The notes under the pieces are model-generated. The model was not told where the DNA came from and ran no database searches. It saw only the letters and a program-made list of their open reading frames with translations. Shown here one piece after another: positions 204-23,447 of a stretch of 23,877 nt of DNA (its first letter is position 1; every line of letters begins with the position of its first letter). The translations under genes and the position numbers were made by a program. The stretch is from an uncultured archaeon (GTDB lineage Archaea; Asgardarchaeota; Lokiarchaeia; Sigyniarchaeales; SOKP01), in NCBI GenBank assembly GCA_964583985.1, contig CAZOYD010000054.1:1-23877 (forward strand), written 5' to 3'.

Positions 204-246
204 AATTTATTTGTTATATTTAAGTATAAGAGAATTGGGATTAGTA

Positions 247-2472: not shown

Positions 2473-2500
2473 AAAAATATGAAAATGATCCCGAACTAAA

Positions 2501-4561: not shown

Positions 4562-4641
4562 AATCATCTAAAAAATAATAAGAGTTACATCCTTTTATTA
4601 TGATGAAGATTATTTCATCAGAAAGTGGTAAGGTATTTAAA

Positions 4642-4986
4642 ATGGATCTGGAATGGAAAATATGTGAAAACTGCGGTTTCTTGCAACATCCCACTCATGT
4701 ACGATGTTTGAAATGTAAATCTCAAAAATTTTATTATGAAAAAGCCAAGGGTGATGCCACTCTTCTAGCTTACACGACTTTAACTGCCCCTCCTGCGGAA
4801 TTCAGAAATAAACCATCATATACTTTGGGTGTCGTGGAATTTGAGAATGGTGTAAAGGCACTGAGTCAGATTGAGTTTGAAGGGAAATTGGATCTTGGCA
4901 TGAAAATGAAACTGTTCCAATCAAAAATCTGCGATAATCTAGATGGGAAAGAGATTGTTGATTATATATTTAAACCACTTAGATAA
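4642..4986 (+). CDS. DUF35 / ChsH2-like Zn-ribbon + OB-fold acyl-CoA-binding protein
   Basis: CENCG...CLKC zinc ribbon followed by G-x-LLAYT, P-Y-x-LGVVEFENG and LGMKM OB-fold motifs. Alternative starts at 4600/4603. Confidence 0.9.
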   Translation: MDLEWKICENCGFLQHPTHVRCLKCKSQKFYYEKAKGDATLLAYTTLTAPPAEFRNKPSYTLGVVEFENGVKALSQIEFEGKLDLGMKMKLFQSKICDNLDGKEIVDYIFKPLR

Positions 4987-5017
4987 TTTTAATATTTGAT
5001 AAGCTTGAAGTGATGTT

Positions 5018-8118: not shown

Positions 8119-8273
8119 TCAAATAAGAAAAGCTGGCATAAATTTAATATTTATAGAAATACCAATTTTTTAATATTGAATTCTGAATCCTAATATTGCC
8201 TTTAAATCATAAAGAGTAACCTTTTATTTATGAGATTTCTCGATTTCATAAGTACAGATAGAATTTGCTCCTA

Positions 8274-8777
8274 ATGTCAAGTATCGAAAAAAAAAGAGAA
8301 AAACGTTCACAAAGAATACTCACGTTATTTAACGCATTTATAGGACAAGAATTAAAAAATCTTCCCGTTCCACCATTTACTAAATGGATTAACGGAAAAA
8401 TTGTTAATGCTAAATATGGTCAGGTTGAAGTGGAGGTTGAAGTTCGCCCTGAAATGGCTAATCCTACTGGTCTATTACATGGTGGAATGCAAAGTGCCTT
8501 TATGGATGATGTGTTAGGAATAACATCGGCGACGCTTGGTTATGAAGGTTTTCCGATCAGTATTGACTTCCATATTGACTTTTTGGGAAAAGTTAAAGTT
8601 GGAGAATCAGTGCGTGTTATTGCCAAGGTTGTGCGTGAGGGAAAGAATATCATTCACATGAATATTAAGATATTAGATATGAACGGAAAGCTCATTTCTA
8701 CTGGTAATTCTAATCTATTAAAAACGTCTTTCATTCCCGATTATGTAAAAATCACAGATGATATTGAAAATGAATAA
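8274..8777 (+). CDS. PaaI-family hotdog-fold acyl-CoA thioesterase
   Basis: NPTGLLHGGMQSAFMDD motif, plus IDFLGKVKVG and VVREGKN. ATG 8274 preferred over TTG 8265. Confidence 0.92.
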   Translation: MSSIEKKREKRSQRILTLFNAFIGQELKNLPVPPFTKWINGKIVNAKYGQVEVEVEVRPEMANPTGLLHGGMQSAFMDDVLGITSATLGYEGFPISIDFHIDFLGKVKVGESVRVIAKVVREGKNIIHMNIKILDMNGKLISTGNSNLLKTSFIPDYVKITDDIENE

Positions 8778-8796: not shown

Positions 8797-10113
8797 TTAG
8801 TCCAATTTTTCTGCCATGTATGGTTTTAATAACTTGATTGAGATGATATAAAAGGGAATGACTGATAATTCAACAAATATGGATATAATGAAGGGAGCGG
8901 AAAAGCCAATTTGAGAAAATGCAAATCCACCAATAACCGGTCCAACTATTGCTCCAAAAAAACTCATCCATCGCGATATACCAAATATTTTCCCTCGATG
9001 ACCTTTAGAAATACGGCTTAATACATTTTGAAGAATTAAATTTCCAGCCCACGCAAGTGTGGAATCTAACAATAAGATGGTTGAAACCATGATTTCATTA
9101 GTACTATTGATAAAAAACCACGTGACTAAAGAGCCTAAACTACTAAAAATAGCTATTCCAATCATCGGATTAATGCGATCTGCGAACTTTCCTAATTTAG
9201 GTGCTAATAGCAATGAAACTATTTGACTAGGAAAATATATTAACATTACAATTATATCGTTTGAATTAATGTATGTTCTAATATAAAGTTGGGAGAAGGG
9301 TGGAGCAATGGTCTGGTTGATATTGCTCGTCATGACAGCTAATGTTAAAAGTATGAACCCGAGTATGAAAAACAGTGACAATTTTGATGGGGATGGTTCT
9401 TCTTTTGACTGTAATTGAATTTGATTCTCGTTGTATTCATCCATGTTTCCATTAATTTTAGCAACATGATCTTCATACGTAAGGCTTTCATCAACTTTTA
9501 TATTGAAAATGATTCCTGCATATACATTTGAAACAAAAAATAAGAGAAGAGGGCTATAAATTAGGAATGGATTGTTAGGAGTGAATGTAAGTGCTAATCC
9601 AAATATTAAAAAAGCCAACATAGAACCCACTAAATTCCCTCTTCCTAACATTCCCGCTTGTTTTCCAAAAGCAGAAGATCGAAATGCTTTGTGAGATTTC
9701 TGAGATGTTAATGCATCTAATGGGCTCCAGAAAAAGCCTACAAAAAACCCGAGTGTAAACAAGCCCACAAGAAAAAAACTTAAAGATGTGATGACGATAC
9801 CAATATACATTATAAAATATGCGGCTCCTCTCCCAAAGCTACCAATGAGTACTAATAATTTTTTTGATACTTTATCAGTTAAATATCCTACGATTGGAGC
9901 GCTAATGAGTCCACCAAACGTTTGTCCAGCAAATGCAAATCCTAATTCTATACCGGTACCCCCCATGAGAACCCAAATTACGAAAGGGATCAGATACCAA
10001 AAGAAAAAGAAACCCATACTATTCCAAAAAACGATTCGAATCATTGGCATGAAATCAGGAGTAAGATTCTCTGAATCAGTGTTAGATTTTCTTGAAAAAA
10101 GTTTATGTTTCAA
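8797..10113 (-). CDS. Major facilitator superfamily transporter
   Basis: About 12 hydrophobic segments in two halves. Motif-A-like GYLTDKVSKK and GKFADRIN, plus RGKIFG and GAIVGPVIGG. TTG start preceded by GAGTGA RBS. Confidence 0.9.
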   Translation of the reverse strand: MKHKLFSRKSNTDSENLTPDFMPMIRIVFWNSMGFFFFWYLIPFVIWVLMGGTGIELGFAFAGQTFGGLISAPIVGYLTDKVSKKLLVLIGSFGRGAAYFIMYIGIVITSLSFFLVGLFTLGFFVGFFWSPLDALTSQKSHKAFRSSAFGKQAGMLGRGNLVGSMLAFLIFGLALTFTPNNPFLIYSPLLLFFVSNVYAGIIFNIKVDESLTYEDHVAKINGNMDEYNENQIQLQSKEEPSPSKLSLFFILGFILLTLAVMTSNINQTIAPPFSQLYIRTYINSNDIIVMLIYFPSQIVSLLLAPKLGKFADRINPMIGIAIFSSLGSLVTWFFINSTNEIMVSTILLLDSTLAWAGNLILQNVLSRISKGHRGKIFGISRWMSFFGAIVGPVIGGFAFSQIGFSAPFIISIFVELSVIPFYIISIKLLKPYMAEKLD

Positions 10114-10237
10114 TGGTTAATCACTCAAATCAACTTCTTAATTAGCAAAAACGATTATTAATGATAATTTCAATATATAATATCCTATAAACTTAATTCT
10201 TTAAGGATAAGTATGTTATATGCGTGAGAACTTCGTA

Positions 10238-11005
10238 TTAAAGTCCGGGATCAGAAAAAGAATTTTTTGAATAGAGGATTTCAGTATTCTTTTTCCTTAA
10301 TTCTTCCATTAATGCTTCTTCTGTAAATTCCCTTATATTCAATAAGGTCCATCCATGTACTCCTCCACTTTCAAAATTGTGTGGATCATGCATATCTGTT
10401 CCTGTCAGCATTCCAATCTCTCCTTTATGCTTCAAGCAAAAATTATAAGATTCTTGATCAAAAACATTTTCAGGGAGTGAATCATCATTGACAATTTCAA
10501 TATAATCTATGCCCCATTCTAAAAGTGTTTCTCGAGATGGGTGATTCTTATATTTTGCTTCATTTATGCTCCATGGAATGTGATTGCAAACAACTATTCC
10601 ATCTAGATCGTGAATTTTATTAATTACCTCTATTATTTTTCCATCCTTAGGTTTGTATGGCACTCGCTCATCCCATTTTGAAATTCCTAAGAAATTAAGA
10701 TGAAGTCTGGTAGTAGTCCATTCAAATCCATTTAATATAATAAATCGCTTGTGAGCATATTCTTGCTTAATTCCGTTAATTTTTTCCATATATCGCATGT
10801 TGTTATGATCAGTAATTGCTATGGCATTGAATCCCATCGCAATATGCCATTCTATATTCTGTTTAATTGTAAGTTTGCCATCACTATAATGCGTGTGCGA
10901 ATGATGATCAAATACAACATTATGCTTAGATTTATCATATCCTGGGGGATTATGAGGTATAAGATCCTTCCAATTGTTATCAGTATATGTGTAACTCTTA
11001 TTCAT
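10238..11005 (-). CDS. PHP-domain metal-dependent phosphoesterase/hydrolase
   Basis: DHHSHTHYSDG, AITDHN, GFEWT..HL, NHIP, EIVN and GTDMH metal-ligand motifs. Confidence 0.9.
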   Translation of the reverse strand: MNKSYTYTDNNWKDLIPHNPPGYDKSKHNVVFDHHSHTHYSDGKLTIKQNIEWHIAMGFNAIAITDHNNMRYMEKINGIKQEYAHKRFIILNGFEWTTTRLHLNFLGISKWDERVPYKPKDGKIIEVINKIHDLDGIVVCNHIPWSINEAKYKNHPSRETLLEWGIDYIEIVNDDSLPENVFDQESYNFCLKHKGEIGMLTGTDMHDPHNFESGGVHGWTLLNIREFTEEALMEELRKKNTEILYSKNSFSDPGL

Positions 11006-11029
11006 TGTTCAATACTATATTTTCAAGAA

Positions 11030-12520
11030 TTAACTATTTTCTATTATCTCCAAACCCAACAATTTAGCTGCGATTTGAAAATGCTCCTTCCAATCTCCTA
11101 AAAAGGATACTCGATGCCAACCAAAGGATTCCCAGTCATAGTTTTCTAATATTTCTTTGGCATTAGTATCGACTAAGACTTTTGTTATACAACCTCCTTT
11201 ATCAGTAGGATTATCGACAATTGTCCCCGTTCTTATCGCGATCTTTTTCTCTAAAACACTAACTTTAACCGTTGTTAATATCTCGCCAATTGGGAATTTT
11301 ACTCTAGGTGAAGCTCCCACGATCTCTGTTTCGCCATGATGTAAAATTTCATAATCGGCAAGAGGACCGTCAATGCCATGAAGAACTCTAGGACAAACGC
11401 AATGCATGTATGTTATCTGATTATTAATCAAATGGAACGTATGATTGGAAACAAATCCAGGTCTCCCGGTCAAATAAAATCCTAAAATGAAACTAATTGA
11501 AGAATCCATGTCAGATTCACAGATTCCATTAATTCCTTCATTAAATAATTCTAAAAACGCCATACATGGATACGCAGGCATTTTCCCGCATAATAATAAC
11601 GTTCCACAATCTGGTGTAAAGAAGTTAATCTTCTTTTCGTTTAAGAGTCTTTTAAATGCTAAGTATAATTTTGCGGAGTTTAAAATGGTCTTTTCAGTAG
11701 GTTCAACCTTTAAAGCATCTTTAACCCATTTCGCAGCTATTTCTTTAACTTCACTATCCTTAATTTGATCATAATAATTGATAATCTCTTCCGGATCTTC
11801 TCGGATCATCTCAATACCAAAAATGGATTTTAGATTCTCTTCATATTTTGGTATATCTTTTCTCCATTGATGAGCTTGATCCTTTCCAACTAAATCAATA
11901 TAGAATTTGGAGTCTTCACTCTTCATCCGTGCAACTTGTTCTATATATTCCGGATAATTCTTTAGTATTTCCTTGCGCTCTGGATTTACTAATCCCATAA
12001 TGCGTGACCAATCCATCTGCGCAGATTCAAGAGCATACACTAAAACCTTATTCCCTCTTATCTTGACAATGTTTTTTAAGACCTCAATTGGTTTATCCAT
12101 ATTTTCTATGTTCCGAGAAGATACCGGAAATATCGGATACTTTTGATCTTTGAGAATTGAATAAAGTTTTGTGAAGGTATGATCACCTGTATAAATAATG
12201 TTTGCAAGAATAACAGGTTTTCCGGATTGGATTATTTCTTTCCCTACTTCTATTATATCTGGATTTCCATAGTGCCCTATTGTAAAAATTATTATTCCCC
12301 CTGCTTGTGAGATCTCCTCTTTGGCTTTTTTCATTACGCTTTCATCATATGTTGTAATAATATCGCTGGAATTAAATTTAACATTAGGAAAGCGATTATT
12401 TAAATGTTCAAGAATGGAAGATTTTAACGGTTCACTATCATACCCTAAATATGGCCATCCTGCTTCCCATTGTGGCTTGCCAATAAAGAAAATTTGAATA
12501 TCTATAATATTTAAACCCAT
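11030..12520 (-). CDS. L-fucose/L-arabinose isomerase superfamily protein (uncharacterised sugar isomerase)
   Basis: C-terminal half has PDC...PCMAF..L...GICESD, GRPGFVSN, YMHC, G..LTTVK, CITKV and WHRV..GD, the pattern of FucI/AraA-like proteins with Glu/Asp/His metal ligands. Confidence 0.75.
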   Translation of the reverse strand: MGLNIIDIQIFFIGKPQWEAGWPYLGYDSEPLKSSILEHLNNRFPNVKFNSSDIITTYDESVMKKAKEEISQAGGIIIFTIGHYGNPDIIEVGKEIIQSGKPVILANIIYTGDHTFTKLYSILKDQKYPIFPVSSRNIENMDKPIEVLKNIVKIRGNKVLVYALESAQMDWSRIMGLVNPERKEILKNYPEYIEQVARMKSEDSKFYIDLVGKDQAHQWRKDIPKYEENLKSIFGIEMIREDPEEIINYYDQIKDSEVKEIAAKWVKDALKVEPTEKTILNSAKLYLAFKRLLNEKKINFFTPDCGTLLLCGKMPAYPCMAFLELFNEGINGICESDMDSSISFILGFYLTGRPGFVSNHTFHLINNQITYMHCVCPRVLHGIDGPLADYEILHHGETEIVGASPRVKFPIGEILTTVKVSVLEKKIAIRTGTIVDNPTDKGGCITKVLVDTNAKEILENYDWESFGWHRVSFLGDWKEHFQIAAKLLGLEIIENS

Positions 12521-12583
12521 AATTTGCGCCTTTTATTAGTCATTTTAACAAGTTTATTTTAACCTTATTTTATTTTTATATAA

Positions 12584-14938
12584 TTAAAATTTAAGTGTTT
12601 TAATTTTCCACGGTCCCATTTCAATACTTTTATTATTTAATGAAGCTATTTCTTTAAAATTAAAATTAATTTCTTTTAATTGGTTTTTTATAAGATCTCC
12701 TTTTATTTCAAGATAAATTTTATCATCAGATGGATTAAATAATCGAAGATATGTATCTTCTTCACGACGCCATAAATTTGCTATTGAAACAAGAGGATTT
12801 AATGACAAGAAGGATGTATTTAAACTGTTAAAATTAGTTTTTTTATCAAATATATGTCCAATTATTCTAAAATAATAAGTATACACGAAAAATAATGGAG
12901 ACTGATTCTCCACTATTGATATACAAAATTCATATTTTCCATTACCAGGGATAAGATTAGAAATCCGAAAGGTTTCTTGATTAATTACAAATTTTTGGCT
13001 ATTTTTTTGGATATAAATCAAACCTTGTTGTGGTCCCTTTAACCATAGAAAATCTAAAGATTGGATTTTCGTTCTTTTGGTCTTTTCAATACCGAAAGGA
13101 TAATTTATAAAAGCGGCTTTAATTTGAATTTGTGGTATGATAATAATTCCACTCAATCCATTTGAATCTAATATAAATTCAAGCCTATTAATATCATTGT
13201 ATTGAGTGATTTGTAATTTGAATTTATTGCCTTTAATATTTCCAATGATCTCGATTATCTCTTCTATATTATTGCTCACTTTTTGATTTATTTCTAATTT
13301 ATAATGCATTTTAGAATTAAATTGAATTTCACAGACAATTTCACTTTTAAATTCAACTTGTATTGTCTGTAAATCATTTAAGATATGAATATCAAACAGA
13401 AAGCATGGTTTCTCATTTTCTATATCTTTTAAAAATATGTGAGTATATCCATACCCAGGCACTTCTGAAATAATTTTTTTTTCAAAATCTTCAATTACAA
13501 CGACATCTCGTCTTGGATAAGGTGTTGGATTAAATATTATTAAATATTCTTCAGAACTCTCTGAATTCTTCGCCATTTGTTTGAAAGCGTTCTTAATGTA
13601 AGCTTTACATTTTTTTTGAATATCTGAAAATATTTGAATGCTTAAATCTGATATCGAAATATTACCCTGTGGTAGATTTAGCTTTTCAAATTCTTCCTTG
13701 GGTAATTGTGCTCGAGAATAGTCCCCTGTTTTAATAAAAGGTACAGCAAAACTATCATGGGCTTGAGCAAGCAATAACTTTTGCCATAATTCTTCGAAGA
13801 AGGAATCACTAGATTTCTCATTTAATTGTCCTAATATTGTATTCATAAATTCTGCAGAAACCAGAGATATTTCAGCATTCCTATTTTGTAGTAATAGCTC
13901 TGAAGTAAGAACAGTATAATCTCCAATCAAAAATTGATCTCTTAAGAACTTGTATTCACCTTCTTTGGTGAATATTTGGAAAGCATCTGAACAAAGTAAA
14001 AATTTTCCTATTATTTCCGAAGATTTGGTTATTCTCCACACTTCTTCTTGTAAAGGAAGCTCATTCATAAAGTCTTCGATACAAGAATAAAGCATATATT
14101 CCATATAAGGTCGTCCAACTGCTTGAAAGAGTAGATTTGGTATTTCTTTAAAAAAAGTTCCGTGCCAAAATTCTCCATTAAACACGCCAGATTGATCAAT
14201 TAAGGCATCAATAGACGTATTATCTAACCCTATCCAGCTAATTAGCGCTGAGCTCGACGTAGGATTTACTCCCAGCAATCTTGTCCTCAATGACCCAAAC
14301 TTTATATCGAACCCTTTAAGAATTTGAGGAATTTGGGGGTGTATGGAGCTCTCAGAACAATAAAATAAATCGCAAGGTAAATTCAAATCTCTTAATGCCT
14401 TAAAGCCATATTCAAAATGTTTAATATTAGCTTCTGGACTAATGATTAAGTTATAAGGTTGCGAATATGAGGGATTTATTATTTCAAATTTTCCTTTATT
14501 AAATAATTCTACAAATCGTGAAAATGATAAGGAGGAATGAAGTTTTAGCCATTCTAAACAACAAATCGCAATTTCAAGATTATAAGGCATATTAGTTTTT
14601 AATGCGAGTTCCATTTTTTTAATTAGAGTAGACAATGCGTATTCTGGAGAATCAAACTCACAAAATCCCGTATCTTCAATGATTACACCTCCATGAGCGC
14701 CAAACAAGAAAAATAGAGGAATATGTAGATCTTGTTGAATAATTGCTTTTAATTTTTGAAGTACTCTATTAAACGTCTTCTCTTTTATCTCTACATCATT
14801 TTGAGACTTGAGTGATCCTACGTTATCAATAAGTTTTGAGAAATTGATTTGTTTCTTCCTAATAATATTCTTTTCTGAAAATTCTTTAATTAAATAAATT
14901 ACTTTTTCTAATGCTAAAATATCTTCTAATTCAATCAT
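12584..14938 (-). CDS. Divergent glycoside hydrolase family 38-like (GH38/GH57 fold) protein
   Basis: FEIINPSYSQPY...ISPEANIKHFEYG, HPQIPQILKGFDI, WIGLDNTSI, LWQKLLLAQAHD, IFNPTPYPRRDVV, LRLFNP and PWKIKTL follow the GH38 domain order. ATG 14938 lies 4 nt after the upstream stop and is preferred over the overlapping TTG 14968. Confidence 0.7.
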   Translation of the reverse strand: MIELEDILALEKVIYLIKEFSEKNIIRKKQINFSKLIDNVGSLKSQNDVEIKEKTFNRVLQKLKAIIQQDLHIPLFFLFGAHGGVIIEDTGFCEFDSPEYALSTLIKKMELALKTNMPYNLEIAICCLEWLKLHSSLSFSRFVELFNKGKFEIINPSYSQPYNLIISPEANIKHFEYGFKALRDLNLPCDLFYCSESSIHPQIPQILKGFDIKFGSLRTRLLGVNPTSSSALISWIGLDNTSIDALIDQSGVFNGEFWHGTFFKEIPNLLFQAVGRPYMEYMLYSCIEDFMNELPLQEEVWRITKSSEIIGKFLLCSDAFQIFTKEGEYKFLRDQFLIGDYTVLTSELLLQNRNAEISLVSAEFMNTILGQLNEKSSDSFFEELWQKLLLAQAHDSFAVPFIKTGDYSRAQLPKEEFEKLNLPQGNISISDLSIQIFSDIQKKCKAYIKNAFKQMAKNSESSEEYLIIFNPTPYPRRDVVVIEDFEKKIISEVPGYGYTHIFLKDIENEKPCFLFDIHILNDLQTIQVEFKSEIVCEIQFNSKMHYKLEINQKVSNNIEEIIEIIGNIKGNKFKLQITQYNDINRLEFILDSNGLSGIIIIPQIQIKAAFINYPFGIEKTKRTKIQSLDFLWLKGPQQGLIYIQKNSQKFVINQETFRISNLIPGNGKYEFCISIVENQSPLFFVYTYYFRIIGHIFDKKTNFNSLNTSFLSLNPLVSIANLWRREEDTYLRLFNPSDDKIYLEIKGDLIKNQLKEINFNFKEIASLNNKSIEMGPWKIKTLKF

Positions 14939-14942
14939 TATC

Positions 14943-15614
14943 TTATGGTAAAGGCCTCTCTTTCTCAATATCAGCGGGTTGTCTCCCTTTTTCTAATTGT
15001 TCAAACCACCATTTATCTGTAGAAATTATCTCTTTAGCTTTTTTTAACACATTTTCTATGTTTTCTTGAGCAACTATTATTACACCGTTAATATCTCCAA
15101 AAACTAAATCTCCCGGTGTAATTATTCTTACTCCACATTTAACGGGTTTCATCACTGATTCTAAATCTACAATCATTCTTCCCCTTATTGACGAACAAAT
15201 AATACCTCTTGCAAAAATAGGAAAATTAAGTGCAATAACTTGTGACATATCCCTAACTGGACCGTCTACTAAACCGCCTCTAAAACCTAAGCCTTGTAAT
15301 AATCTACTTGTACTCTGTCCAAGCCCAGCAGCATTCATATTATCTGACATGTCTACACACATGATAGGAAACTTAGGGGTCTTTCTTATATATTTCACAA
15401 GTTTAGCGATGATATTTCTATCCAACGGTTCTTCAGAGGGAACCATTTTCATTGTTCCAGCGTAACCTAGAATCCTAGCTCCTGACCACATTGGTCTAAT
15501 TCCTGCATCTATAAACGCGGGTTCAAGTCCTAACTCATCAATTGCATCAGACACAGCACAGGTATATAATTTTGAATATTCTGCTAGTATATATTCTAAT
15601 TTGGTATCATTCAT
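14943..15614 (-). CDS. RraA / HMG-CHA aldolase family protein (class II pyruvate aldolase-like)
   Basis: AVSDAID..G, GYAGT, GLG, GGLVDGPVRD (catalytic Arg-Asp), FPIFARG, PGDLVFGDINGVIIV. Confidence 0.9.
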   Translation of the reverse strand: MNDTKLEYILAEYSKLYTCAVSDAIDELGLEPAFIDAGIRPMWSGARILGYAGTMKMVPSEEPLDRNIIAKLVKYIRKTPKFPIMCVDMSDNMNAAGLGQSTSRLLQGLGFRGGLVDGPVRDMSQVIALNFPIFARGIICSSIRGRMIVDLESVMKPVKCGVRIITPGDLVFGDINGVIIVAQENIENVLKKAKEIISTDKWWFEQLEKGRQPADIEKERPLP

Positions 15615-15710
15615 GTTTGTTAAGCTTTAAGAATTTATTAAAATATAATAAATAGATTGATACTTTTTTTATTATAAATTTAATTACACCAATCTCAAAC
15701 ACTGGTTAAA
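15615..15710. promoter_or_regulatory. Divergent promoter region between the aldolase-glycosidase-isomerase run and the dehydratase
   Basis: 96-nt AT-rich spacer between head-to-head ATGs. TATA-like elements lie about 25-40 nt upstream of each start (TTATAAAT near 15672 on +, TTTAATAA near 15642 on -), consistent with leaderless archaeal transcripts. Confidence 0.45.
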
Positions 15711-17381
15711 ATGAATGATCAAGATTTATCTTTGAAATCGAGAAGTGATCGAATATTTGAACATACAAAAACCACGCCTTTTAATTACGTGACAAGAGGG
15801 ATAATTAAGGGAGTAGGATTAAATGACAAGGATATTGATAAAAAACCTTTTATAGGTATCGCTAATTCTTGGAATGAAATTAATCCTGGGCATACACATC
15901 TTAAATCATTAGCCGAAGCTGTAAAGTATGGAATTTTGGAGACAGGTGGCATACCGCTTGAATTTTGTACCGTAGCACCTTGTGATGGATGGGCTAATGG
16001 AAATGAAGGAATGCGTTATATATTACCGCATAGAGAAATCATTGCAGATTCTGTTGAATTGATGGTTGAAGCCCATAGTCTAGATGCATTAGTGACTCTT
16101 TCTAGTTGTGATAAGATCAATCCTGCAATGTTGATGGCAGCCATTCGATTAGATATCCCAACTATTTGTGTTCCAGGAGGTCCAAGCTTTTGGGAAATTG
16201 AATTTTCACCGGAGTATTCAGGAATCGATGAGAATAATTATGATAATTTTTCTGATAAGGTAAAATGCGTGACATGCGCAAGTTATGGTGCTTGTGAAAT
16301 AATGGGAACCGCAAATACATTTCAATGCATAATGGAGGCATTTGGAATGACTTTACCTAATGCAGCAACTATTCCTGCGGTGAGCAATATGAAATACCTC
16401 TTAGCTCGAAATTCTGGAAGACAAGTAATGCAATTACTCAAGGATGGAATAACACCGTCTCAAATAATGACTAAGAAATCTTTTGAGAATGCATTGATGG
16501 TTGATTTAGCAATTGGTGGATCTACTAATTCTGCTTTACATTTACCAGCTATTGCCCATGAGATGGGAATAGATTTTGATTTAGAGCTGTTTAACAAATT
16601 CAGTAAGAAAATTCCAACTATCGCGAACATATACCCATCGGGAAATTATGGTGTTGTCGATTTATACAAAGCGGGAGGTATTCCTGCAGTAATGAATAGA
16701 ATAAAAGATTATCTTAACTTAGAATGCATGACAGTCTCGGGTAAACCTTTAGGAAAGACCTTTAAAAGATATAAAGTATTAGATGATGATATTATTAGAC
16801 CATTGAATAATCCTGTTTTCCCCGAAGGTGGAACCGTAATTCTTAAAGGTAATTTAGCCCCAGATGGAGCAGTTATTAAGCAATCTGGTGTTAAACACAA
16901 AGATATGCTTAAATTTACAGGACCAGCTAGATGTTATAATTCCGAAGGAGAGGCTCTTGAAGATTTAGCCATGAATAAAATCCCAAATGGATCGGTCCTT
17001 ATTATTCGATATGAGGGTCCTAAAGGAGCCCCCGGTATGCCGGAATTATTAGCTGTAACGGCAACTCTAATGTTAAAAAAGAAATTAGATCGTGTTGCAT
17101 TGATTACTGATGGGCGATTCTCTGGTGGTACTTCTGGTCCTTGTATAGGTCATGTAAGTCCTGAAGCATACGTAGGTGGTCCGATTGCGATTATTCAAAA
17201 TGGAGATCTGATTGATATCGATATACCTAATAGGACCCTTAATGCAAAAATTAGCGATGATGAGATTAAGGATAGGTTTAATCGATGGAATCCCGTTGAA
17301 AACCCTGTTAAAAGCAAAGCACTACTTAAATATAAAAAATTAGTATCCTCTGCCGCAAAAGGAGCTATTTTACAATTCTAA
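15711..17381 (+). CDS. ilvD: IlvD/Edd-family dihydroxy-acid dehydratase (possibly a sugar-acid dehydratase)
   Basis: KPFIGIANSWNEINPGH, PCDG, CDKINP, GACEIMGTANT, GGSTN, LKGNLAPDGAVIK, RYEGPKGAPGMPE, TDGRFSGG, GHVSPEA. Confidence 0.93.
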   Translation: MNDQDLSLKSRSDRIFEHTKTTPFNYVTRGIIKGVGLNDKDIDKKPFIGIANSWNEINPGHTHLKSLAEAVKYGILETGGIPLEFCTVAPCDGWANGNEGMRYILPHREIIADSVELMVEAHSLDALVTLSSCDKINPAMLMAAIRLDIPTICVPGGPSFWEIEFSPEYSGIDENNYDNFSDKVKCVTCASYGACEIMGTANTFQCIMEAFGMTLPNAATIPAVSNMKYLLARNSGRQVMQLLKDGITPSQIMTKKSFENALMVDLAIGGSTNSALHLPAIAHEMGIDFDLELFNKFSKKIPTIANIYPSGNYGVVDLYKAGGIPAVMNRIKDYLNLECMTVSGKPLGKTFKRYKVLDDDIIRPLNNPVFPEGGTVILKGNLAPDGAVIKQSGVKHKDMLKFTGPARCYNSEGEALEDLAMNKIPNGSVLIIRYEGPKGAPGMPELLAVTATLMLKKKLDRVALITDGRFSGGTSGPCIGHVSPEAYVGGPIAIIQNGDLIDIDIPNRTLNAKISDDEIKDRFNRWNPVENPVKSKALLKYKKLVSSAAKGAILQF

Positions 17382-17712
17382 AATAAGATAAAATAAATTA
17401 TGATTTTAGAATATTATATGGTTTTATTGGAATGAATGGTTCCGATTGAAATTTGGCTCTTTTCCACTTTCCTTATATTAAAATATGTATTAAAAATATT
17501 TTTGAAAGCGGTCATTAATTTTGGTAATCTTGACCAAATCCTATTTATTGCATTAAAAATTAGCACTTTCACATCCTAGAATTTAGGAAGGATACATTTA
17601 TAGAAATAACATCCAATCTCATTTTTTCAATGAGGGAAATTCGAAAGGTGGTATATTTAAATGTTTAACTTTATTATGACTATTTAATTTTAATTGAGGA
17701 GATTATCTTAAA

Positions 17713-19092
17713 ATGAGTGAACAAGAAAAACCTGTATCATCAAAAGTTAAAATTTCTTTTGCTTTGGGCAATATTGGAGGATTAGCTATAGGTCAATCTT
17801 CAATTTTACTATTGTATACCTATTATTTTTTATATATTGGTGTTCCACTTCATCCTATTGTTTTGGGTTTAATTTTAATGATATATGGTATTTGGGATGC
17901 ATTAAATGAACCTATCATCGGTTATCTTTCAGATTTTACGAAGTCACGATGGGGACGAAGAAAGCCATTTATAATGGCTGGCATAATTCCATTAATTATC
18001 TTTGGCTTTCTAATTTATACGCCTCCGCTTTCAGATTCAGTAGCTGCTGGACTTTATTTAATAATTATGCTCTTTTTGTATGATACATTCGTGACGATGG
18101 TGGTAACAATGTGGTTTTCTTTATTTCCTGAAATTTCGTTAAAACAAGAAGAAAGGCTATCAATTTCCAAATATTTACAAATCTTCGGAGTATTTGGGCT
18201 CATTTTTGGGTTAGGAATAGCACCCTTGATAGCAGGATCTTTTTCCGAAGTGGGAATGGGATATTCAATAATGGGATTAGCCATTGGTGTTCTCACTGCA
18301 TTATCAGTAATTCCAACGATCCTTTTTGTGAAAGAACGTAAAGAATTTCAAATTCAAGTTGAACAGAAAGTCAAATTTATAAAGTCGCTGAAAATCGCAT
18401 TTAAAAGCAAATCATTTAATTATTACGTAATGGTTCAATTTCTGCTCCAACTCTCTTATTCTTTGGTGCTCTCAAGTTTACCATTGTTCTTTGAGGGCGT
18501 GTTAGGGTTAGAATCGGTCGAATGGGCATTACAGCTGCTTTTAGTATTTGTTGTTGTTATTCCAAGCTTATTTTTGTGGATTAAAATAGCATCTACCAAA
18601 GGAACCAAATACGCTTTATTTTGGTCCATGGTTGCTTTTTCAGCAGTTTTTCCCTTCGTTTTTCTAGTGTTTAATTCCTTAACAATGATGGTGTTACTTC
18701 TACTGGCAGGAATTGGCTTGGCTGGAGTGATGTTATTTCCAACCATTTTATTAAGCGATGTAATTGATGAAGATCAGTTAATTACAAAAACTAGGAGAGA
18801 AGGCCTTTATAATGGTGTTTCTGGTGTGATTGTGAAGCTTGCAAATTCAATAAGCTGGTTATTGTTAGGTTTTATGATAACTCTATTCCAAATAGATAGA
18901 AATAACCTAAATCCTCTAAATATTACAGCTTTGAATGATATTGGGCTCAGAATATCAGTAGGATTGTTGCCTGTCCTCGTTATCATTATAGGATTGTTTT
19001 TTCTGTATAAATATCCTTTAGCAGGAAAACATTTGAAAGAAGTAAAAGAGCAAGTCAAGTTAATTAACGAAGAACTATCTAAAAATAAATAA
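17713..19092 (+). CDS. Glycoside-pentoside-hexuronide (GPH, MelB/UidB-like) cation:sugar symporter
   Basis: IWDALNEPIIGYLSDFTKSRWGRRKPF, ERLSIS and SDVIDED...RREGLYNG motifs. About 12 TM segments. GAGGAG RBS upstream. Confidence 0.92.
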   Translation: MSEQEKPVSSKVKISFALGNIGGLAIGQSSILLLYTYYFLYIGVPLHPIVLGLILMIYGIWDALNEPIIGYLSDFTKSRWGRRKPFIMAGIIPLIIFGFLIYTPPLSDSVAAGLYLIIMLFLYDTFVTMVVTMWFSLFPEISLKQEERLSISKYLQIFGVFGLIFGLGIAPLIAGSFSEVGMGYSIMGLAIGVLTALSVIPTILFVKERKEFQIQVEQKVKFIKSLKIAFKSKSFNYYVMVQFLLQLSYSLVLSSLPLFFEGVLGLESVEWALQLLLVFVVVIPSLFLWIKIASTKGTKYALFWSMVAFSAVFPFVFLVFNSLTMMVLLLLAGIGLAGVMLFPTILLSDVIDEDQLITKTRREGLYNGVSGVIVKLANSISWLLLGFMITLFQIDRNNLNPLNITALNDIGLRISVGLLPVLVIIIGLFFLYKYPLAGKHLKEVKEQVKLINEELSKNK

Positions 19093-19094
19093 AA

Positions 19095-19147
19095 ATAATT
19101 CTCTTGTACTCCTCTCACAGAGGAGAATATGAATTATCTATTTTTTT
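19095..19147. terminator. Stem-loop plus T-tract between convergent GPH and AOR genes
   Basis: Perfect CTCCTCT-cac-AGAGGAG stem (19109-19125), outer arm ATAATTC/GAATTAT (19095-19101/19131-19137), then T7 at 19141-19147. Confidence 0.6.
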
Positions 19148-19157
19148 GTTTTCAAGC

Positions 19158-21017
19158 TTATCCAATATTTAATTCTTTTAATTTTTTAGATGTAGGTATT
19201 CCGTTATCATCCCAACCTCGAAACTTATAATATTCCTCTAACATTAAATCAATCGTTACCACTTTATTTTTAGTTAAGCCTTTTTCTAATGGAAATTTAA
19301 GTCTTGGAGGTAACTTATCATCAATTCTGGTGACGCCACATTTAGTATTATATACTCTTTTTAAATTAAATATTCGTTCTCCAATTTCTATTAGACTTTT
19401 CAATGAAAACTTGAACCCCGTTAAATAATAAAGCACGTCTAAAAGTTTATCCAACAAGCCATCAACAATCTGGGATCCAGAGGTCATGGTTTGTTTGCAT
19501 ATTCCCAATGCATTTACCACTTCTGCTAAATTTTGCGTCATGGCAATATCTTTCGCAAACTTTGGATCATCTATTGTTCTTTCTCTTATCGGTTTTTCCT
19601 TTGTTATTTTAAGATTATCATTAAAACCAGTGAATCCTGAATACTGATCATTTGCATAACCTCGACCATGACACGCACCACGATTGGAAGTGGCATATTG
19701 TAAACCGAGTGGAAAGATACCTCTTGGATCATGCATCGGTGCCTCAAGTCCTTTTACATCAGTAAGAAATTGTTCTGATCCTTTTCCAATTATTTTAGAA
19801 GCCTTTTTAGAACCCAAACTTAGAGTTTTTCCTATCCCTTCTCTTTCACATATTAACCGAGTTAATTTAACAATAGCTTCTGCATTTCCCCATTCTAATG
19901 GAAATCCTATATCTTCTTCCGTTAAAACTCCATGTTCGTAACAATCAAGAGCGAAAGAGATTGTGCATCCCGTGGATATAGTATCAACTCCCATTTTATT
20001 ACAGAGATCGTTCAAATAAGCTATGGCTTCGACATCTGATATTAAGCACATTGCACCAAATGCAGCAGTTGTTTCATATTCTGCACCAGCCGCGTGCTCA
20101 ATCTTATAAGGCCCTTCTTTAATTTCAATCTCTCTCCCACACATGAAAGGGCAAAGATAACAGGGTTTATTCTTAACATGGTATTTTTCAAACACAACTT
20201 CTCCCGAAATTTGAGGAACGTCTCGCCACTTGTGTAATGTCCAATTTTTATGAGGGACATCATATAATCGTTCAAAATAAGTAATGTTATTCGTGCCATA
20301 AGTTCGCAATATTTCTGCCATCGGAGATTTTTGGAATGATTTAAATAATAATTGTGTTATCTTGCGGAAATTATCCTCATCATAATATTCGATTTTCTTC
20401 TTACTCTTTTTTACAGCAATGGCCTTGAGATTTTTTGACCCCATTATGGCCCCCATTCCAGTTCGCCCCACTGCTCTATGATGATCATTCATTATAGTCG
20501 CCAATGGAACCTGCTTTTCTCCAGATGGGCCAATACAAGCAATCTTATAATCCTTACCGAGTTTGGAATTTAGTTCTTGGATTGTTTTATCGGTTGTTAA
20601 TCCCCATAAATCTGAAGCATCTTTTAATTCAAAATGATCTTTCTCAACTAATAGATATTTAGGAGTCTCTAATTTATTTTTAAATACAATCCCATTAAAA
20701 TTTTTTCTCAATTCTGCAGCGAAAAAACCGCCTGATAGACCTTCACCGTAGATAGATGTTTGAGGAGAACGCGCTGAAACCGAATAAAAGCCCGAACAAG
20801 GATAAGTAGTGCCTGTCAAAAGTCCCGTCATCAATGCTAGAACGTTTTTTTTATCAAGCGGATTGTAGTTATAAGTTTTCTCATCCAATAAATAGTTTAT
20901 AGCAAATCCAGGACCACCCAAGAATTTTTCAATATTCGCTCTACCATATTCACGGACAATAAAGGATTCATTTTCTAAATCTACTTCCAAAACTTTTCCA
21001 ATATCATGTTTTGCCAC
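19158..21017 (-). CDS. aor: Tungsten-dependent aldehyde:ferredoxin oxidoreductase family protein
   Basis: FLGGPG, ARSPQT, GGFFAAEL, IGPSGE, GRTGMGAIMGSKNLKAI, CYLCPFMC (4Fe-4S), EYET, GVDTISTG, HDPR, RGACH, YYKFRGWD..GIPT. Confidence 0.95.
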   Translation of the reverse strand: MAKHDIGKVLEVDLENESFIVREYGRANIEKFLGGPGFAINYLLDEKTYNYNPLDKKNVLALMTGLLTGTTYPCSGFYSVSARSPQTSIYGEGLSGGFFAAELRKNFNGIVFKNKLETPKYLLVEKDHFELKDASDLWGLTTDKTIQELNSKLGKDYKIACIGPSGEKQVPLATIMNDHHRAVGRTGMGAIMGSKNLKAIAVKKSKKKIEYYDEDNFRKITQLLFKSFQKSPMAEILRTYGTNNITYFERLYDVPHKNWTLHKWRDVPQISGEVVFEKYHVKNKPCYLCPFMCGREIEIKEGPYKIEHAAGAEYETTAAFGAMCLISDVEAIAYLNDLCNKMGVDTISTGCTISFALDCYEHGVLTEEDIGFPLEWGNAEAIVKLTRLICEREGIGKTLSLGSKKASKIIGKGSEQFLTDVKGLEAPMHDPRGIFPLGLQYATSNRGACHGRGYANDQYSGFTGFNDNLKITKEKPIRERTIDDPKFAKDIAMTQNLAEVVNALGICKQTMTSGSQIVDGLLDKLLDVLYYLTGFKFSLKSLIEIGERIFNLKRVYNTKCGVTRIDDKLPPRLKFPLEKGLTKNKVVTIDLMLEEYYKFRGWDDNGIPTSKKLKELNIG

Positions 21018-21212
21018 TTTTTTTCATATCTATCTGTATTATTTAATCTAAATTATTTTAGAACCATGAAGTTAATAAATATTTATAATAATAGGAAAAT
21101 CTTCAGTTTAAATTCTGATGGGAAACTTATGAAATTAATAGATAAAGCTTAATTTTTTGGAATGATTTTTTCAATTGAAATAAATTAATAAAAAAATAAG
21201 ATTAGAACTAAA

Positions 21213-22205
21213 ATGATAACTCCAGAACAATTAAAAGAAGTTTTAAAAGAAAGCGTTATTAACTTAAGATTCCACGCTCGTGGAGGTCAAGGAGGAGTAA
21301 CTGCTTCAAATCTTTGCGTTGAAGCGTTTTATGGATATGGTGTATGCCAACCTAAATTTGGTGCTGAAAGAATGGGCTCTCCTACAGAAAGTTATGTACG
21401 TTTAAGTGCTAACATTGATTTAGTTCGAAATAATGAACAAGTATATGCTCCTCACGTGGTCGCTGTTTTAGATCCTTCTCTTCTTGGAGAAATTGATGTT
21501 GTAGCAGGATTAGCACCCGGAGGATGGTTAATTGTCAATACAGTGTTAGATCAAATCTCACTTCAAACGATAGTCAAACGGAAAGATATTAATATTGCAA
21601 CTATTGATGCTTTAAACATCGCAATGGAGGTGCTTGGTCGTAATATCACAAATACAATAATCCTTGGAGCAGTAATACGTGTCATGCCCATTTTTACCAT
21701 GGAAGCTTTGGCTGATGCGATAATGAGTAGATTTAAAGGAAGCATCGCTGCAAAAAACGTAGAAGCGATAAAACGTGCTCATGAAGAAACATGTATTTTT
21801 GAAACACCTAAAGCTCCAGAGATTAATTTTTCAGTAGATACAAAAGTTCCGTGGCAACAAGTTTCTTTAGGATTACCAGGATATAAAGAAATTGATGCTG
21901 CAGGAGTATGGTATTGCGATGAAGATATAATAGAATATGGAAGTAGCCAAGTTAATACGGGTTCATGGGGTGAATGGGATATCATATGGGATGAAGAAAA
22001 ATGCACGGATTGTACTTTGTGTTGGTATATATGCCCCGATTTTGCAATAATCCGAGAAAAAGGAGAAGATGGACTATGGCACATGAAAGGTATTGATCAA
22101 TTTCATTGCAAATCTTGTCAAAACTGCCTTGAAGTCTGTCCTGTTAGTGCAATATCCAAAAAATTAAAACAAGGTCCGGCGGCTTGCGCTGTACCGGAGG
22201 AGTAG
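21213..22205 (+). CDS. porC: 2-oxoacid (pyruvate/ketoisovalerate):ferredoxin oxidoreductase, fused gamma-delta subunit
   Basis: Gamma motifs RFHARGGQGGVTA, FGAERMGSP, NTIILGA. C-terminal delta NTGSW and two 4Fe-4S motifs, CTDCTLCWYICP and CKSCQNCLEVCP. Confidence 0.92.
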   Translation: MITPEQLKEVLKESVINLRFHARGGQGGVTASNLCVEAFYGYGVCQPKFGAERMGSPTESYVRLSANIDLVRNNEQVYAPHVVAVLDPSLLGEIDVVAGLAPGGWLIVNTVLDQISLQTIVKRKDINIATIDALNIAMEVLGRNITNTIILGAVIRVMPIFTMEALADAIMSRFKGSIAAKNVEAIKRAHEETCIFETPKAPEINFSVDTKVPWQQVSLGLPGYKEIDAAGVWYCDEDIIEYGSSQVNTGSWGEWDIIWDEEKCTDCTLCWYICPDFAIIREKGEDGLWHMKGIDQFHCKSCQNCLEVCPVSAISKKLKQGPAACAVPEE

Positions 22206-22217
22206 AGGTGAAATAAA

Positions 22218-23447
22218 ATGAGTATCGAACCAATGAGAATCTTTTTTAAAGAAATCAAGGAACCAATTAAAACCACCATGATTGGAAATTATGCGGTTGC
22301 TGGGGGTGTCACTCAAACAGATCCAGATGTAATCTGCGCATTTCCAATAACACCGCAAACCCAATCTGTTGAAGGATTATCTGATGTTGTAAACCAAGGA
22401 AGATTAAAAGCCGCTTTTGTAAATGTAGAATCTGAATTAGCTGCGATTAGTTATTCAACAGCAGCATGTGCAGCTGGTGCTAGAACATTTACCGCTACTG
22501 CGAGTCAGGGCTATTTGTTGATGACTGAGGCTCTACCCATGGCTGTAGGTTGGAGAATACCCTTGACAATGATGATTTCAGCCCGAGCATTCAATTCACC
22601 CAATTTATCTATTTGGAATTCATGGGAATATACCCAAGTCAATTCTGAGCTTGGATGGAACATCATAGTCTCAGAAAATGTTCAAGAAACCTATGATGCA
22701 GCGATCCTATCTGTTATGATTTCTGAAGATACACTATTTCCAACAATCTTCGTTCACGATGGATTTATAATCTCCCATTCCGTCCAAAATTTAACGTTAA
22801 TCCCCGATGAAACGGTTAGGCGCATGACACCCAAAAAACCTCGTCATGTAATTGATCCTTCGAAACCAGGAACATGGGGTGGTATTGTAACTCCAGATTA
22901 CTTCATGGAAGGAAGAGCAAATCTTGATGAAGCTAAAAAACCAGTTTTAACTCAAATGAAAAACGCAATGGCTCAATTTAAATCTGAGACTGGAAGGGAA
23001 TATAATTTAATAGAAACGTATAATGTAGTTAATTCCTCCAAAACCTGTTTCGTAACAATGGGGTCAATGAGTGGAAACATAATAAGTTGGATGACGAAAA
23101 ATAAAGACGTTGGACTCATAAAGATCCGAGCATTTCGACCATTCCCATATGAAGAATTAAGAAAAATAGTCGAAGAAAACGGCATAGAGAAGCTTATCAT
23201 ATTAGAGAAAAGTGATTCTTTGAATGGACTTTTACCTCCCTTTTCGATGACGATCGCTTCGGCTCTTTATCCTCTTAAAACGATATTCAGAAGCTTTATT
23301 GTGGGCTTAGGAGGCAGAGATGTGACTCGAGATGAGTTTGATATAGCAAAAATGAAAATGGCTACTGTTAATGACATGAAGGGACCACTCTACATATATC
23401 TCGGAGTACGTGAAACAAAAGAAAAAATTCATGGGGTGAATCTCTAA
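22218..23447 (+). CDS. porA: 2-oxoacid (pyruvate):ferredoxin oxidoreductase alpha subunit
   Basis: GNYAVA, AFPITPQT, VESE, RTFTATASQG, DGFIISH, IRAFRPFP, GLGGRD. GAGGTGA RBS 6 nt upstream. Confidence 0.93.
   Translation: MSIEPMRIFFKEIKEPIKTTMIGNYAVAGGVTQTDPDVICAFPITPQTQSVEGLSDVVNQGRLKAAFVNVESELAAISYSTAACAAGARTFTATASQGYLLMTEALPMAVGWRIPLTMMISARAFNSPNLSIWNSWEYTQVNSELGWNIIVSENVQETYDAAILSVMISEDTLFPTIFVHDGFIISHSVQNLTLIPDETVRRMTPKKPRHVIDPSKPGTWGGIVTPDYFMEGRANLDEAKKPVLTQMKNAMAQFKSETGREYNLIETYNVVNSSKTCFVTMGSMSGNIISWMTKNKDVGLIKIRAFRPFPYEELRKIVEENGIEKLIILEKSDSLNGLLPPFSMTIASALYPLKTIFRSFIVGLGGRDVTRDEFDIAKMKMATVNDMKGPLYIYLGVRETKEKIHGVNL

Follow-up and report, generated by a model that had tools for sequence, protein, structure and literature searches.

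Around a short AT-rich spacer on contig CAZOYD010000054.1 of an uncultured Asgard archaeon (assembly GCA_964583985.1), the genes for an RraA-like protein and a glycosidase-like protein diverge from those for an IlvD/Edd dehydratase and a sugar symporter, and a gene for a tungsten-type aldehyde oxidoreductase (AOR) lies beyond the symporter. This arrangement raises the question of whether these genes form a functional unit and, if so, which reactions the unit carries out. A prediction made from the sequence alone (the original prediction) had read them, together with several neighbors, as a kinase-free, non-phosphorylative pathway of sugar fermentation. The window analyzed here is the whole of this 23,877-bp contig (C54), part of a 3.8-Mb, 138-contig metagenome-assembled genome (MAG; genome G000). 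Genes were called from an open reading frame (ORF) listing combined with Pfam and NCBIfam scans, and AlphaFold2 (AF2) models were searched with Foldseek for the proteins without a firm Pfam assignment. Five of the genes form a conserved, co-inherited core. We give even odds (a probability of about 0.5) to the reading that the cluster encodes an oxidative, non-phosphorylative route of the Entner-Doudoroff or Dahms type for a glycoside-derived sugar, with the AOR as its ferredoxin-linked oxidation step.

A conserved gene set surrounds the RraA-like gene

Loci with an RraA orthologue (at least 64% identity) were collected from 300 genomes of the phylum, a species-representative genome collection and metagenome contigs, giving 39 distinct loci after removal of duplicates. 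The IlvD copy found in the window, referred to below as type A, occurs in 31 of the 39 loci, a gene for a protein resembling glycoside hydrolase family 38 (GH38) in 30, a glycoside-pentoside-hexuronide (GPH)-type transporter in 22, an orthologue of the AOR in 17 and a LarA-type (Lar_N) protein in 13. Many of the absences correspond to contigs of 2 to 7 kb. An extended short-chain dehydrogenase/reductase (SDR) is present in five loci, a metallo-beta-lactamase (MBL)-fold hydrolase in four, a PHP protein in four, an MFS_1 transporter in three, the isomerase-like protein in two, the ADP-forming acyl-CoA synthetase (ACD) in two and the 2-oxoacid:ferredoxin oxidoreductase (POR) in one. Across the 300 phylum genomes, orthologues of RraA, the type-A IlvD and the AOR are found in the same genomes and close to one another, a grouping beyond what chance would give. 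The core of the system thus comprises the GH38-fold protein, the RraA-like protein, the type-A IlvD, the GPH symporter and the AOR. The original prediction had called for a synteny comparison and had counted the isomerase, PHP protein, MFS_1 transporter, ACD and POR as pathway members as well; the core genes proved to be co-inherited, and these five, at one to four loci each, did not.

The divergent layout of the RraA-like and IlvD genes is found again in most orthologous loci. The order and orientation of the cluster genes vary from locus to locus: one relative (L008) has the order PHP-AOR-GPH-IlvD(-)-RraA-GH-isomerase, and three others (L055, L057 and L086) have AOR-LarA-GPH-IlvD(-)-RraA-GH. 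The gene set is retained despite this shuffling, which argues for selection on the set and not for inherited synteny alone. The cluster is most likely an accessory, catabolic element with a patchy distribution within one family of Promethearchaeota-type Asgard archaea. In one relative (G206), a gene for an IS605 OrfB/TnpB-type transposase lies between the RraA-like and IlvD genes (L054:10910-12187), an insertion in keeping with a patchily distributed, mobile cluster. RraA homologues of Thorarchaeota, at 33 to 41% identity, were left out of the system, as none of the cluster neighbors accompanies them. One contig titled "Candidatus Nanopelagicaceae bacterium" (L088, DATKTW010000125.1) bears the Asgard cluster with proteins 80 to 82% identical; this bin is probably mislabeled or else contaminated.

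Two IlvD paralogues with different distributions

The genome encodes two IlvD proteins, the type-A copy in the window and a second copy (type B) on contig C47. Type A matches Pfam ILVD_EDD_N with 386 bits (cut-off, 27) and ILV_EDD_C with 241 bits (cut-off, 27.7). It carries the signatures CDKINPAMLMA at residue 133 and ALITDGRFSG at residue 463, which we take to correspond to the PROSITE patterns of the IlvD/Edd family, C-D-K (cluster/Mg site) and [SA]-L-x-T-D-G-R-x-S-G (catalytic Ser). In the ilvD equivalog model TIGR00110 (cut-off, 618), type A passes marginally with a score of 632, and type B scores 673. The genome also encodes a ketol-acid reductoisomerase (KARI). Scores of type A with models of pentonate dehydratases lie below the cut-offs (PRK13016, 447 versus 882; YjhG/YagF model, 276 versus 808).

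The distribution of the two copies separates them. Every one of the 26 genomes sampled from the genus of the window has type B, which is near-universal in the family. In the 300-genome sample, type A (at least 64% identity) was found in 19 of the 22 RraA-positive genomes and in seven RraA-less ones. In the 19, it adjoins the RraA-like gene on every contig that extends far enough to reveal the neighborhood. Two of the three RraA-positive genomes without it reflect contig breaks. In a maximum-likelihood tree, all type-A sequences fall into one clade apart from type B (SH-aLRT, 99). The possibility that type A is the enzyme of branched-chain amino acid (BCAA) biosynthesis, the main one among the outcomes that would have refuted the original prediction, was therefore rejected: the higher-scoring, near-universal copy is type B, and type A has a scattered distribution, is inherited together with RraA and forms a clade apart. 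Where type A occurs without RraA, it stands beside the same LarA orthologue (72 to 76% identity) and near UxaA-like sugar-acid dehydratases, so that it stays in a hydroxy-acid or sugar-acid setting. We propose that type A is an aldonate (2,3-dihydroxy-acid) dehydratase; dihydroxy-acid dehydratase (DHAD) of Sulfolobus dehydrates gluconate and other aldonates.

Type B is probably the biosynthetic enzyme. In other families, it lies beside an acetolactate-synthase-like thiamine pyrophosphate (TPP) enzyme; at three loci (L173, L175 and L179), its flanking genes encode this enzyme, of 637 amino acids, a Gfo/Idh/MocA protein and, in some cases, a GPH transporter. In the genome studied here, type B (C47:8622-12836, locus L004) adjoins two Gfo/Idh/MocA oxidoreductases. 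Type B may thus also not be purely biosynthetic. In addition, a split UxaA-like altronate/galactarate dehydratase (SAF small and GD_AH large subunits) is encoded a few kilobases from a type-A or type-B IlvD at L165, L167, L170 and L173.

A candidate lyase of the RraA family

The closest solved structures to the RraA-like protein are 3k4i, 5ir2 and 3noj, the last of which is an aldolase (HMG/CHA aldolase) for 4-hydroxy-4-methyl-2-oxoglutarate and 4-carboxy-4-hydroxy-2-oxoadipate. The similarity is distant, with best Protein Data Bank (PDB) matches of 50 to 66 bits, approximately 50 bits for 3noj, and an NCBIfam score of 71 against a cut-off of 179. Residues R121 and D122 do not vary among 15 diverse members of the family, and they align with the RD of 3k4i and 5ir2; they are presumably the counterpart of R123/D124, the catalytic Arg-Asp pair of the Pseudomonas putida enzyme. 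HMG/CHA aldolase belongs to the class II pyruvate aldolases. A different activity is represented in the same family by FlDet, a dehydratase/decarboxylase that converts 2-keto-3-deoxy-glucarate to alpha-ketoglutarate semialdehyde (alpha-KGSA) (PMC8563752). Orthologues of the RraA-like protein at 64% identity or more were found in Asgard MAGs only.

Given its family, conserved residues and neighbors, we propose the RraA-like protein, the anchor gene of the cluster, as a putative 2-keto-3-deoxy-acid lyase. Neither an enolase-type gluconate dehydratase nor an aldolase of the dihydrodipicolinate synthase (DHDPS) type for 2-keto-3-deoxy-(6-phospho)gluconate (KD(P)G) was recognized in the window with Pfam and NCBIfam, and one DHDPS-family gene is encoded elsewhere in the genome, on contig C7. 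The original prediction had pointed to an RraA-fold enzyme at the place where a DHDPS-type aldolase would be expected, and the Pfam assignment agrees with it (Table 1).

A cluster-dedicated AOR and its proposed counterpart in a sister form

Among solved structures, those of AOR sensu stricto match the AOR of the window best (9mqx, 371 bits; 1aor, 364 bits), and this AOR carries the 4Fe-4S cysteine motif CxxCxxxC as CYLCPFMC at residue 286. The genome encodes 14 AOR paralogues, and none of the remaining 13 exceeds 34% identity to this one. Together with at least 12 ACD-alpha-like genes, these paralogues make up an unusually large set for handling aldehydes and acyl-CoA. Orthologues of the window AOR (at least 61% identity) occur in 15 of the 300 phylum genomes, every one of them RraA-positive. 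They lie on the RraA contig except in one fragmented assembly, where the AOR gene sits on a different, short contig. None was found in the RraA-less genomes of this sample, which include 17 of the 26 genomes of the same genus. The AOR is therefore a cluster-dedicated subfamily.

A sister form of the cluster lacks the AOR. It was found at L059/L060, in Sigynarchaeum (L095) and at two metagenome loci (L186 and L189), where the RraA orthologue is 64 to 67% identical and more basal. The genes follow the order (GPH-GH-)RraA-SDR-MBL-(LarA)-IlvD, with GPH-GH-RraA-SDR-MBL-IlvD-LarA at L059. Among the 39 loci, 17 have the AOR only, five have SDR/MBL only and none has both. The statement in the original prediction that the window contains no NAD(P)-dependent sugar dehydrogenase holds; the sister form, however, bears an SDR and an MBL-fold hydrolase where the AOR stands. 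Attempts to name the roles of these two proteins through NCBIfam or the PDB gave generic epimerase and glyoxalase II-like matches only. The sister-form gene set fits a logic of dehydrogenase, lactonase, epimerase, dehydratase and lyase. A dehydrogenase plus a hydrolase (from hemiacetal through lactone to acid, or from hemithioacetal through thioester to acid) would achieve what an AOR does in one step, so the swap marks the AOR as a probable carbonyl-to-carboxylate module.

The glycosidase-like protein and lineage-specific genes

The AF2 model of the glycosidase-like protein (pLDDT, 90) aligns over its full length with GH38 alpha-mannosidases, including 7dd9 (E value, 1e-31; TMq, 0.69) and 2wyh. 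The matches cover the GH38 architecture of an N-terminal (beta/alpha)7 barrel, a helical middle part and a beta-rich C-terminal part, with E values of 1e-31 to 1e-27, TMq of 0.64 to 0.71 and approximately 900 aligned columns. At the sequence level, the only Pfam match is to Alpha-mann_mid, below the threshold (21.7 versus 31.1 bits), and paralogues reach GH38N (44.6 versus 25) and GH57 (34 versus 21). Residues H82, E94, D96, E196, H200, D289, H394 and D395 are invariant in the family and are candidate Zn-binding or catalytic residues. The gene most likely starts at position 14938, 4 nt past the RraA stop codon, which gives 784 residues as in the homologue P0121. The copy next to RraA comes from different paralogue groups in different genomes, with 84% identity to the window protein in L008, 41 to 54% elsewhere and 42% in the closest relative, L180. 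This variation gives it the look of a swappable front end, for different glycosides, that feeds a constant back end.

The isomerase-like protein, for which Pfam gave no match, has an AF2 model (pLDDT, 91) that resembles L-arabinose isomerase 4r1p (E value, 5e-21; TM score, 0.66) and FucI 1fui (E value, 3e-13); its weak NCBIfam matches are to AraA and, as the best one, to the sulfoquinovose isomerase SftI. In a profile alignment with Thermotoga maritima AraA, the invariant E335 falls on the first catalytic Glu and S358/N359 on the position of the second; we take this acidic pair to be E306/E333 in Escherichia coli AraA. Among the 39 loci, the gene belongs to the cluster in the window and in L008 and in no other. 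The original prediction had placed isomerization ahead of the aldonate; in chemical terms, an aldose-ketose isomerase does not feed an aldonate dehydratase. The isomerase was also rejected as a core step on its distribution, since distant homologues occur with sulfatases and MFS_2 transporters and without IlvD or RraA, and an M28 peptidase takes its place in the closest relative. The AraA-fold family is mostly Asgard, with some members in Anaerolineae and Thermoproteota, and homologues of both this protein and the glycosidase-like protein come almost all from MAGs of Promethearchaeota and Hod-, Hermod-, Thor- and Sigynarchaeota, which supports the Asgard assignment of the window. At two loci of Hod- and Lokiarchaeota MAGs (L005:10001-14468 and L006:6722-14214), an AraA-fold gene adjoins MFS_2 transporters and one or two sulfatases, which hints at a role of the family with sulfated sugars. 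The PHP and MFS_1 genes are retained only in the closest relatives (L180, L181 and L008), and together with the isomerase they were treated as lineage-specific additions.

A LarA-type epimerase is a frequent cluster member in relatives and is absent from the window. Its best copy elsewhere in the genome (on contig C33) is 47 to 50% identical and does not lie beside related genes; it was set aside as a paralogue.

Proposed pathway and alternatives

In the pathway that we propose, the GPH symporter would import a glycoside, from which the cytoplasmic GH38-fold enzyme would free a monosaccharide. The sugar would be oxidized to the aldonate, whose C2 configuration may be adjusted in many relatives by the LarA-type nickel-pincer enzyme. 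The type-A IlvD would then dehydrate the 2,3-dihydroxy acid to a 2-keto-3-deoxy acid, and the RraA/HMG-aldolase-like enzyme, through metal-stabilized pyruvate-enolate chemistry, would cleave this acid into pyruvate and an aldehyde. The tungsten AOR would supply the ferredoxin-linked oxidation of a carbonyl to a carboxylate. The catalytic steps, the substrate and the direction of flux are inferred from gene content and protein families.

Two targets of the AOR, the aldehyde released by the lyase and the sugar itself, appear nearly equal in likelihood. Precedent favors the C2 or C3 aldehyde freed by the lyase: in the non-phosphorylative Entner-Doudoroff pathway of Thermoproteus, glyceraldehyde is oxidized by a ferredoxin-linked enzyme of the AOR family. 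The sister form favors the sugar. If its SDR and MBL-fold hydrolase are read as a sugar dehydrogenase and a lactonase, both forms of the cluster become complete from sugar to pyruvate and aldehyde, with the AOR in the place of that pair. In its most specific version, the AOR would oxidize the free open-chain aldose to the aldonate with ferredoxin, replacing an NAD-dependent dehydrogenase and lactonase of the ancestral sister cluster; we put this forward tentatively, as a doubtful extension of the proposed pathway.

Several observations weigh against the proposed pathway or its AOR step. No sugar 1-dehydrogenase or lactonase was recognizable in the window with Pfam and NCBIfam, and no orthologue of the SDR or MBL of the sister clusters was found in the studied genome. 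These two proteins resemble nucleotide-sugar epimerases and glyoxalase II, and their dehydrogenase and lactonase roles are assumed. The AOR form and the SDR form are sister clades, so that one evolutionary event may account for the fact that they exclude each other. To our knowledge, no enzyme of the AOR family has aldose-oxidizing activity, and no paper on an AOR acting on aldoses was found in the literature searched. Sequence identity between the GH38-like protein and solved GH38 enzymes is as low as 11 to 14%. For the LarA-like protein, the highest scores come from malate racemase models (235 bits), where they stay below the cut-offs, and not from gluconate epimerases. Finally, the presence of the dehydratase/decarboxylase FlDet in the RraA family leaves room for a role other than that of a lyase (PMC8563752).

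This last point makes a Weimberg-like route a real rival, in which the RraA-like protein would act as a 2-keto-3-deoxy-acid dehydratase, with or without decarboxylation, to yield alpha-KGSA as FlDet does, and the AOR would oxidize the semialdehyde to 2-oxoglutarate with ferredoxin. The enolate chemistry and the conserved R-D pair are compatible with both reactions, and a semialdehyde product would need a dedicated aldehyde oxidoreductase such as the AOR encoded directly downstream. However, the Asgard protein is distant from every characterized RraA member, the sister-form cluster contains no aldehyde-oxidizing gene, and GH38-fold enzymes are known for hexosides (mannosides), whereas this route needs pentonates or aldarates. 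We consider it unlikely, if the strongest of the alternatives.

Less probable still is a route for small acids such as glycerate or tartrate, in which LarA would racemize or epimerize the acid, IlvD would dehydrate it to pyruvate or oxaloacetate, and the RraA-like protein would be an oxaloacetate decarboxylase; the glycosidase may then free glycerate from a glycosyl-glycerate solute. The best scores of the LarA-like protein, with malate racemases, keep this explanation alive. In addition, some genomes keep an IlvD and LarA pair in the absence of RraA, GH and AOR; NCBIfam names record oxaloacetate decarboxylation as a further activity of HMG/CHA aldolases; the GH38 enzyme MngB of E. coli hydrolyzes mannosyl-glycerate 6-phosphate; and Sulfolobus DHAD dehydrates glycerate. 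However, such routes yield no aldehyde and leave the dedicated AOR and the SDR and MBL pair without a role, and the frequent association with a glycosidase and a glycoside transporter counts against them.

A chance neighborhood of the BCAA dehydratase, a regulator or unrelated RraA-like protein and the general fermentation genes AOR, POR and ACD, to which the marginal TIGR00110 score, the KARI gene and the lack of conservation of POR and ACD would point, is strongly disfavored and very improbable, because a second, higher-scoring and near-universal IlvD exists and because the type-A IlvD, RraA and AOR orthologues are gained and lost jointly and stay adjacent through rearrangements.

Returning to the oxidative, non-phosphorylative route, the label "kinase-free" in the original prediction is not established, because the genome encodes a MOFRL glycerate 2-kinase on contig C16, outside the window. 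Of 70 genomes of the family, 58 encode this kinase, irrespective of the cluster, and it is uninformative as a cluster marker.

No description of this cluster, or of an RraA-type aldolase for 2-keto-3-deoxy sugar acids, was found in the literature searched, and one Asgard survey gives only a generic "sp/np-ED" category. The carbohydrate metabolism of Asgard archaea has been deduced almost wholly from generic annotations; the cluster offers a concrete, conserved and testable unit. If the proposal is correct, some Asgard lineages possess a dedicated non-phosphorylative route for sugars or sugar acids whose components one would not have expected: a lyase with the RraA fold, a paralogue resembling DHAD, an epimerase of the nickel-pincer type and a tungsten AOR reserved for the route. 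It would give the poorly understood RraA/HMG-aldolase family a further physiological role and one of the numerous orphan AOR paralogues in anaerobic archaea a pathway context. Should the AOR act on the sugar, the first oxidation would yield low-potential electrons and a sugar phosphate would never be formed, an energy-saving arrangement for very slow-growing anaerobes near the eukaryotic stem. Models of the redox and ATP balance of these fermenters, and of hydrogen-based syntrophy, would then change.

Gene content of the window

All genes named in the original prediction are present where it had placed them, and each is backed by a family or fold assignment (Table 1). An Rfam scan of the window gave no match.

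Table 1. Position, strand and assignment of the cluster genes and their neighbors in the window
Feature	Position	Strand	Assignment
ACD alpha subunit	6691-8118	-	
MFS_1 transporter, 438 aa	8797-10113	-	Pfam MFS_1, 94 bits
PHP / CehA-McbA metallohydrolase, 255 aa	10238-11005	-	Pfam PHP, 42.6 bits; NCBIfam CehA/McbA, 90 (cut-off, 80)
AraA/FucI-fold isomerase-like protein, 496 aa	11030-12520	-	AF2 and Foldseek; no Pfam match
GH38-fold glycosidase-like protein, 784 aa	12584-14938	-	AF2 and Foldseek
RraA/HMG-CHA-aldolase-like protein, 223 aa	14943-15614	-	Pfam RraA-like, 85 bits (cut-off, 24.5)
Divergent AT-rich spacer between RraA-like and IlvD genes, 96 bp	15615-15710	.	Sequence
IlvD/Edd dehydratase, type A, 556 aa	15711-17381	+	Pfam ILVD_EDD_N and ILV_EDD_C
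GPH cation symporter, 459 aa	17713-19092	+	Pfam MFS_2, 200 bits; TIGR00792, 150 bits
Tungsten-type AOR, 619 aa	19158-21017	-	Pfam AFOR_N, 213 bits; AFOR_C, 400 bits
POR gamma-delta fusion and alpha subunit	21213-23447	+	Pfam and NCBIfam

At the right end of the window, no gene for a POR beta subunit follows the alpha subunit up to the contig end. The stretch 3' of POR alpha holds a 27-codon ORF (MSKPERNVISFEDILARKEKSNVFTNL) and approximately 350 nt of AT-rich non-coding DNA, and beta-like POR genes lie on contigs C55, C7 and C57. POR and ACD were rejected as conserved pathway parts, on their rarity among the loci and, for POR, on the missing beta subunit gene.

A hotdog thioesterase gene sits between the ACD alpha and MFS_1 genes. 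Positions 211 to 8777 appear to form a separate acyl-CoA block with genes for a B12-radical-SAM protein, a TPR protein, a DUF35-type OB-fold protein, a methylmalonyl-CoA mutase, the ACD alpha subunit and the hotdog thioesterase. The positions of the mutase, ACD and thioesterase genes are retained in the closest metagenome relative (L180:10965-14700). Elsewhere, in one genus, the cluster or a solitary GH38-like paralogue is bordered by a block of genes (L051-L053, L046, L163, L166, L168 and L009) for an FAD oxidase resembling GlcD, a CCG/Fe-S protein resembling GlcF, a CdhC-like protein and an ATPase similar to CbiA/NifH.

Comparison with known systems

The proposed route shares with the archaeal non-phosphorylative or branched Entner-Doudoroff pathways (Thermoproteus tenax, Saccharolobus and Picrophilus) the order of sugar, aldonate, 2-keto-3-deoxy acid and pyruvate plus glyceraldehyde. 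The likeness extends to the ferredoxin-linked oxidation of an aldehyde by an AOR-family enzyme in Thermoproteus and to the MOFRL glycerate 2-kinase of this genome. However, the dehydratase here belongs to the IlvD family and not to the gluconate dehydratases of the enolase superfamily, and the candidate lyase has the RraA fold (class II, metal dependent), in contrast to the DHDPS-family KD(P)G aldolase (class I, Schiff base). The cluster contains no sugar dehydrogenase, its AOR subfamily is dedicated to it, and genes for a GH38-like glycosidase and a GPH importer go with it, frequently together with one for a LarA-type epimerase. It thus departs from the archaeal pathway in three defining enzymes: the sugar dehydrogenase, the type of dehydratase and the aldolase fold.

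With the bacterial Dahms and Weimberg pathways for pentoses (XylD of Caulobacter, YjhG/YagF with YjhH/YagE of E. coli) and the haloarchaeal Xac enzymes, the proposed route shares an aldonate dehydratase of the IlvD/Edd family. In those pathways, aldol cleavage to pyruvate and glycolaldehyde, or a second dehydration to alpha-KGSA, comes next, and the aldehyde is oxidized afterwards. Unlike their dehydratases, type A groups with DHAD-like sequences and not with the pentonate dehydratase models. The aldolase fold also differs, and the oxidation here would depend on tungsten and ferredoxin, whereas it is carried out there by NAD(P)-dependent aldehyde dehydrogenases.

The RraA fold and the Arg-Asp pair are common to the Asgard protein, the HMG/CHA aldolases of the LigK/GalC type from P. 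putida and FlDet. The substrates of these enzymes are 4-hydroxy-2-oxo acids, and FlDet is the precedent in the family for action on 2-keto-3-deoxy sugar acids (PMC8563752). The context of the Asgard protein is carbohydrate metabolism, in contrast to aromatic meta-cleavage or alginate degradation.

The enzyme logic of the original prediction is also that of a synthetic, minimized glycolysis by Guterl et al. (2012), in which a promiscuous DHAD, a 2-keto-3-deoxygluconate (KDG) aldolase and an aldehyde oxidation step reportedly convert glucose to two pyruvates without a kinase. However, that system is man-made and NAD-linked, whereas in the Asgard genome a glycerate kinase is available and there is no sign that the IlvD dehydrates glycerate as well. 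Taken across these comparisons, the logic of the proposed pathway is that of the oxidative non-phosphorylative sugar routes, namely, the non-phosphorylative Entner-Doudoroff, Dahms and Weimberg pathways.

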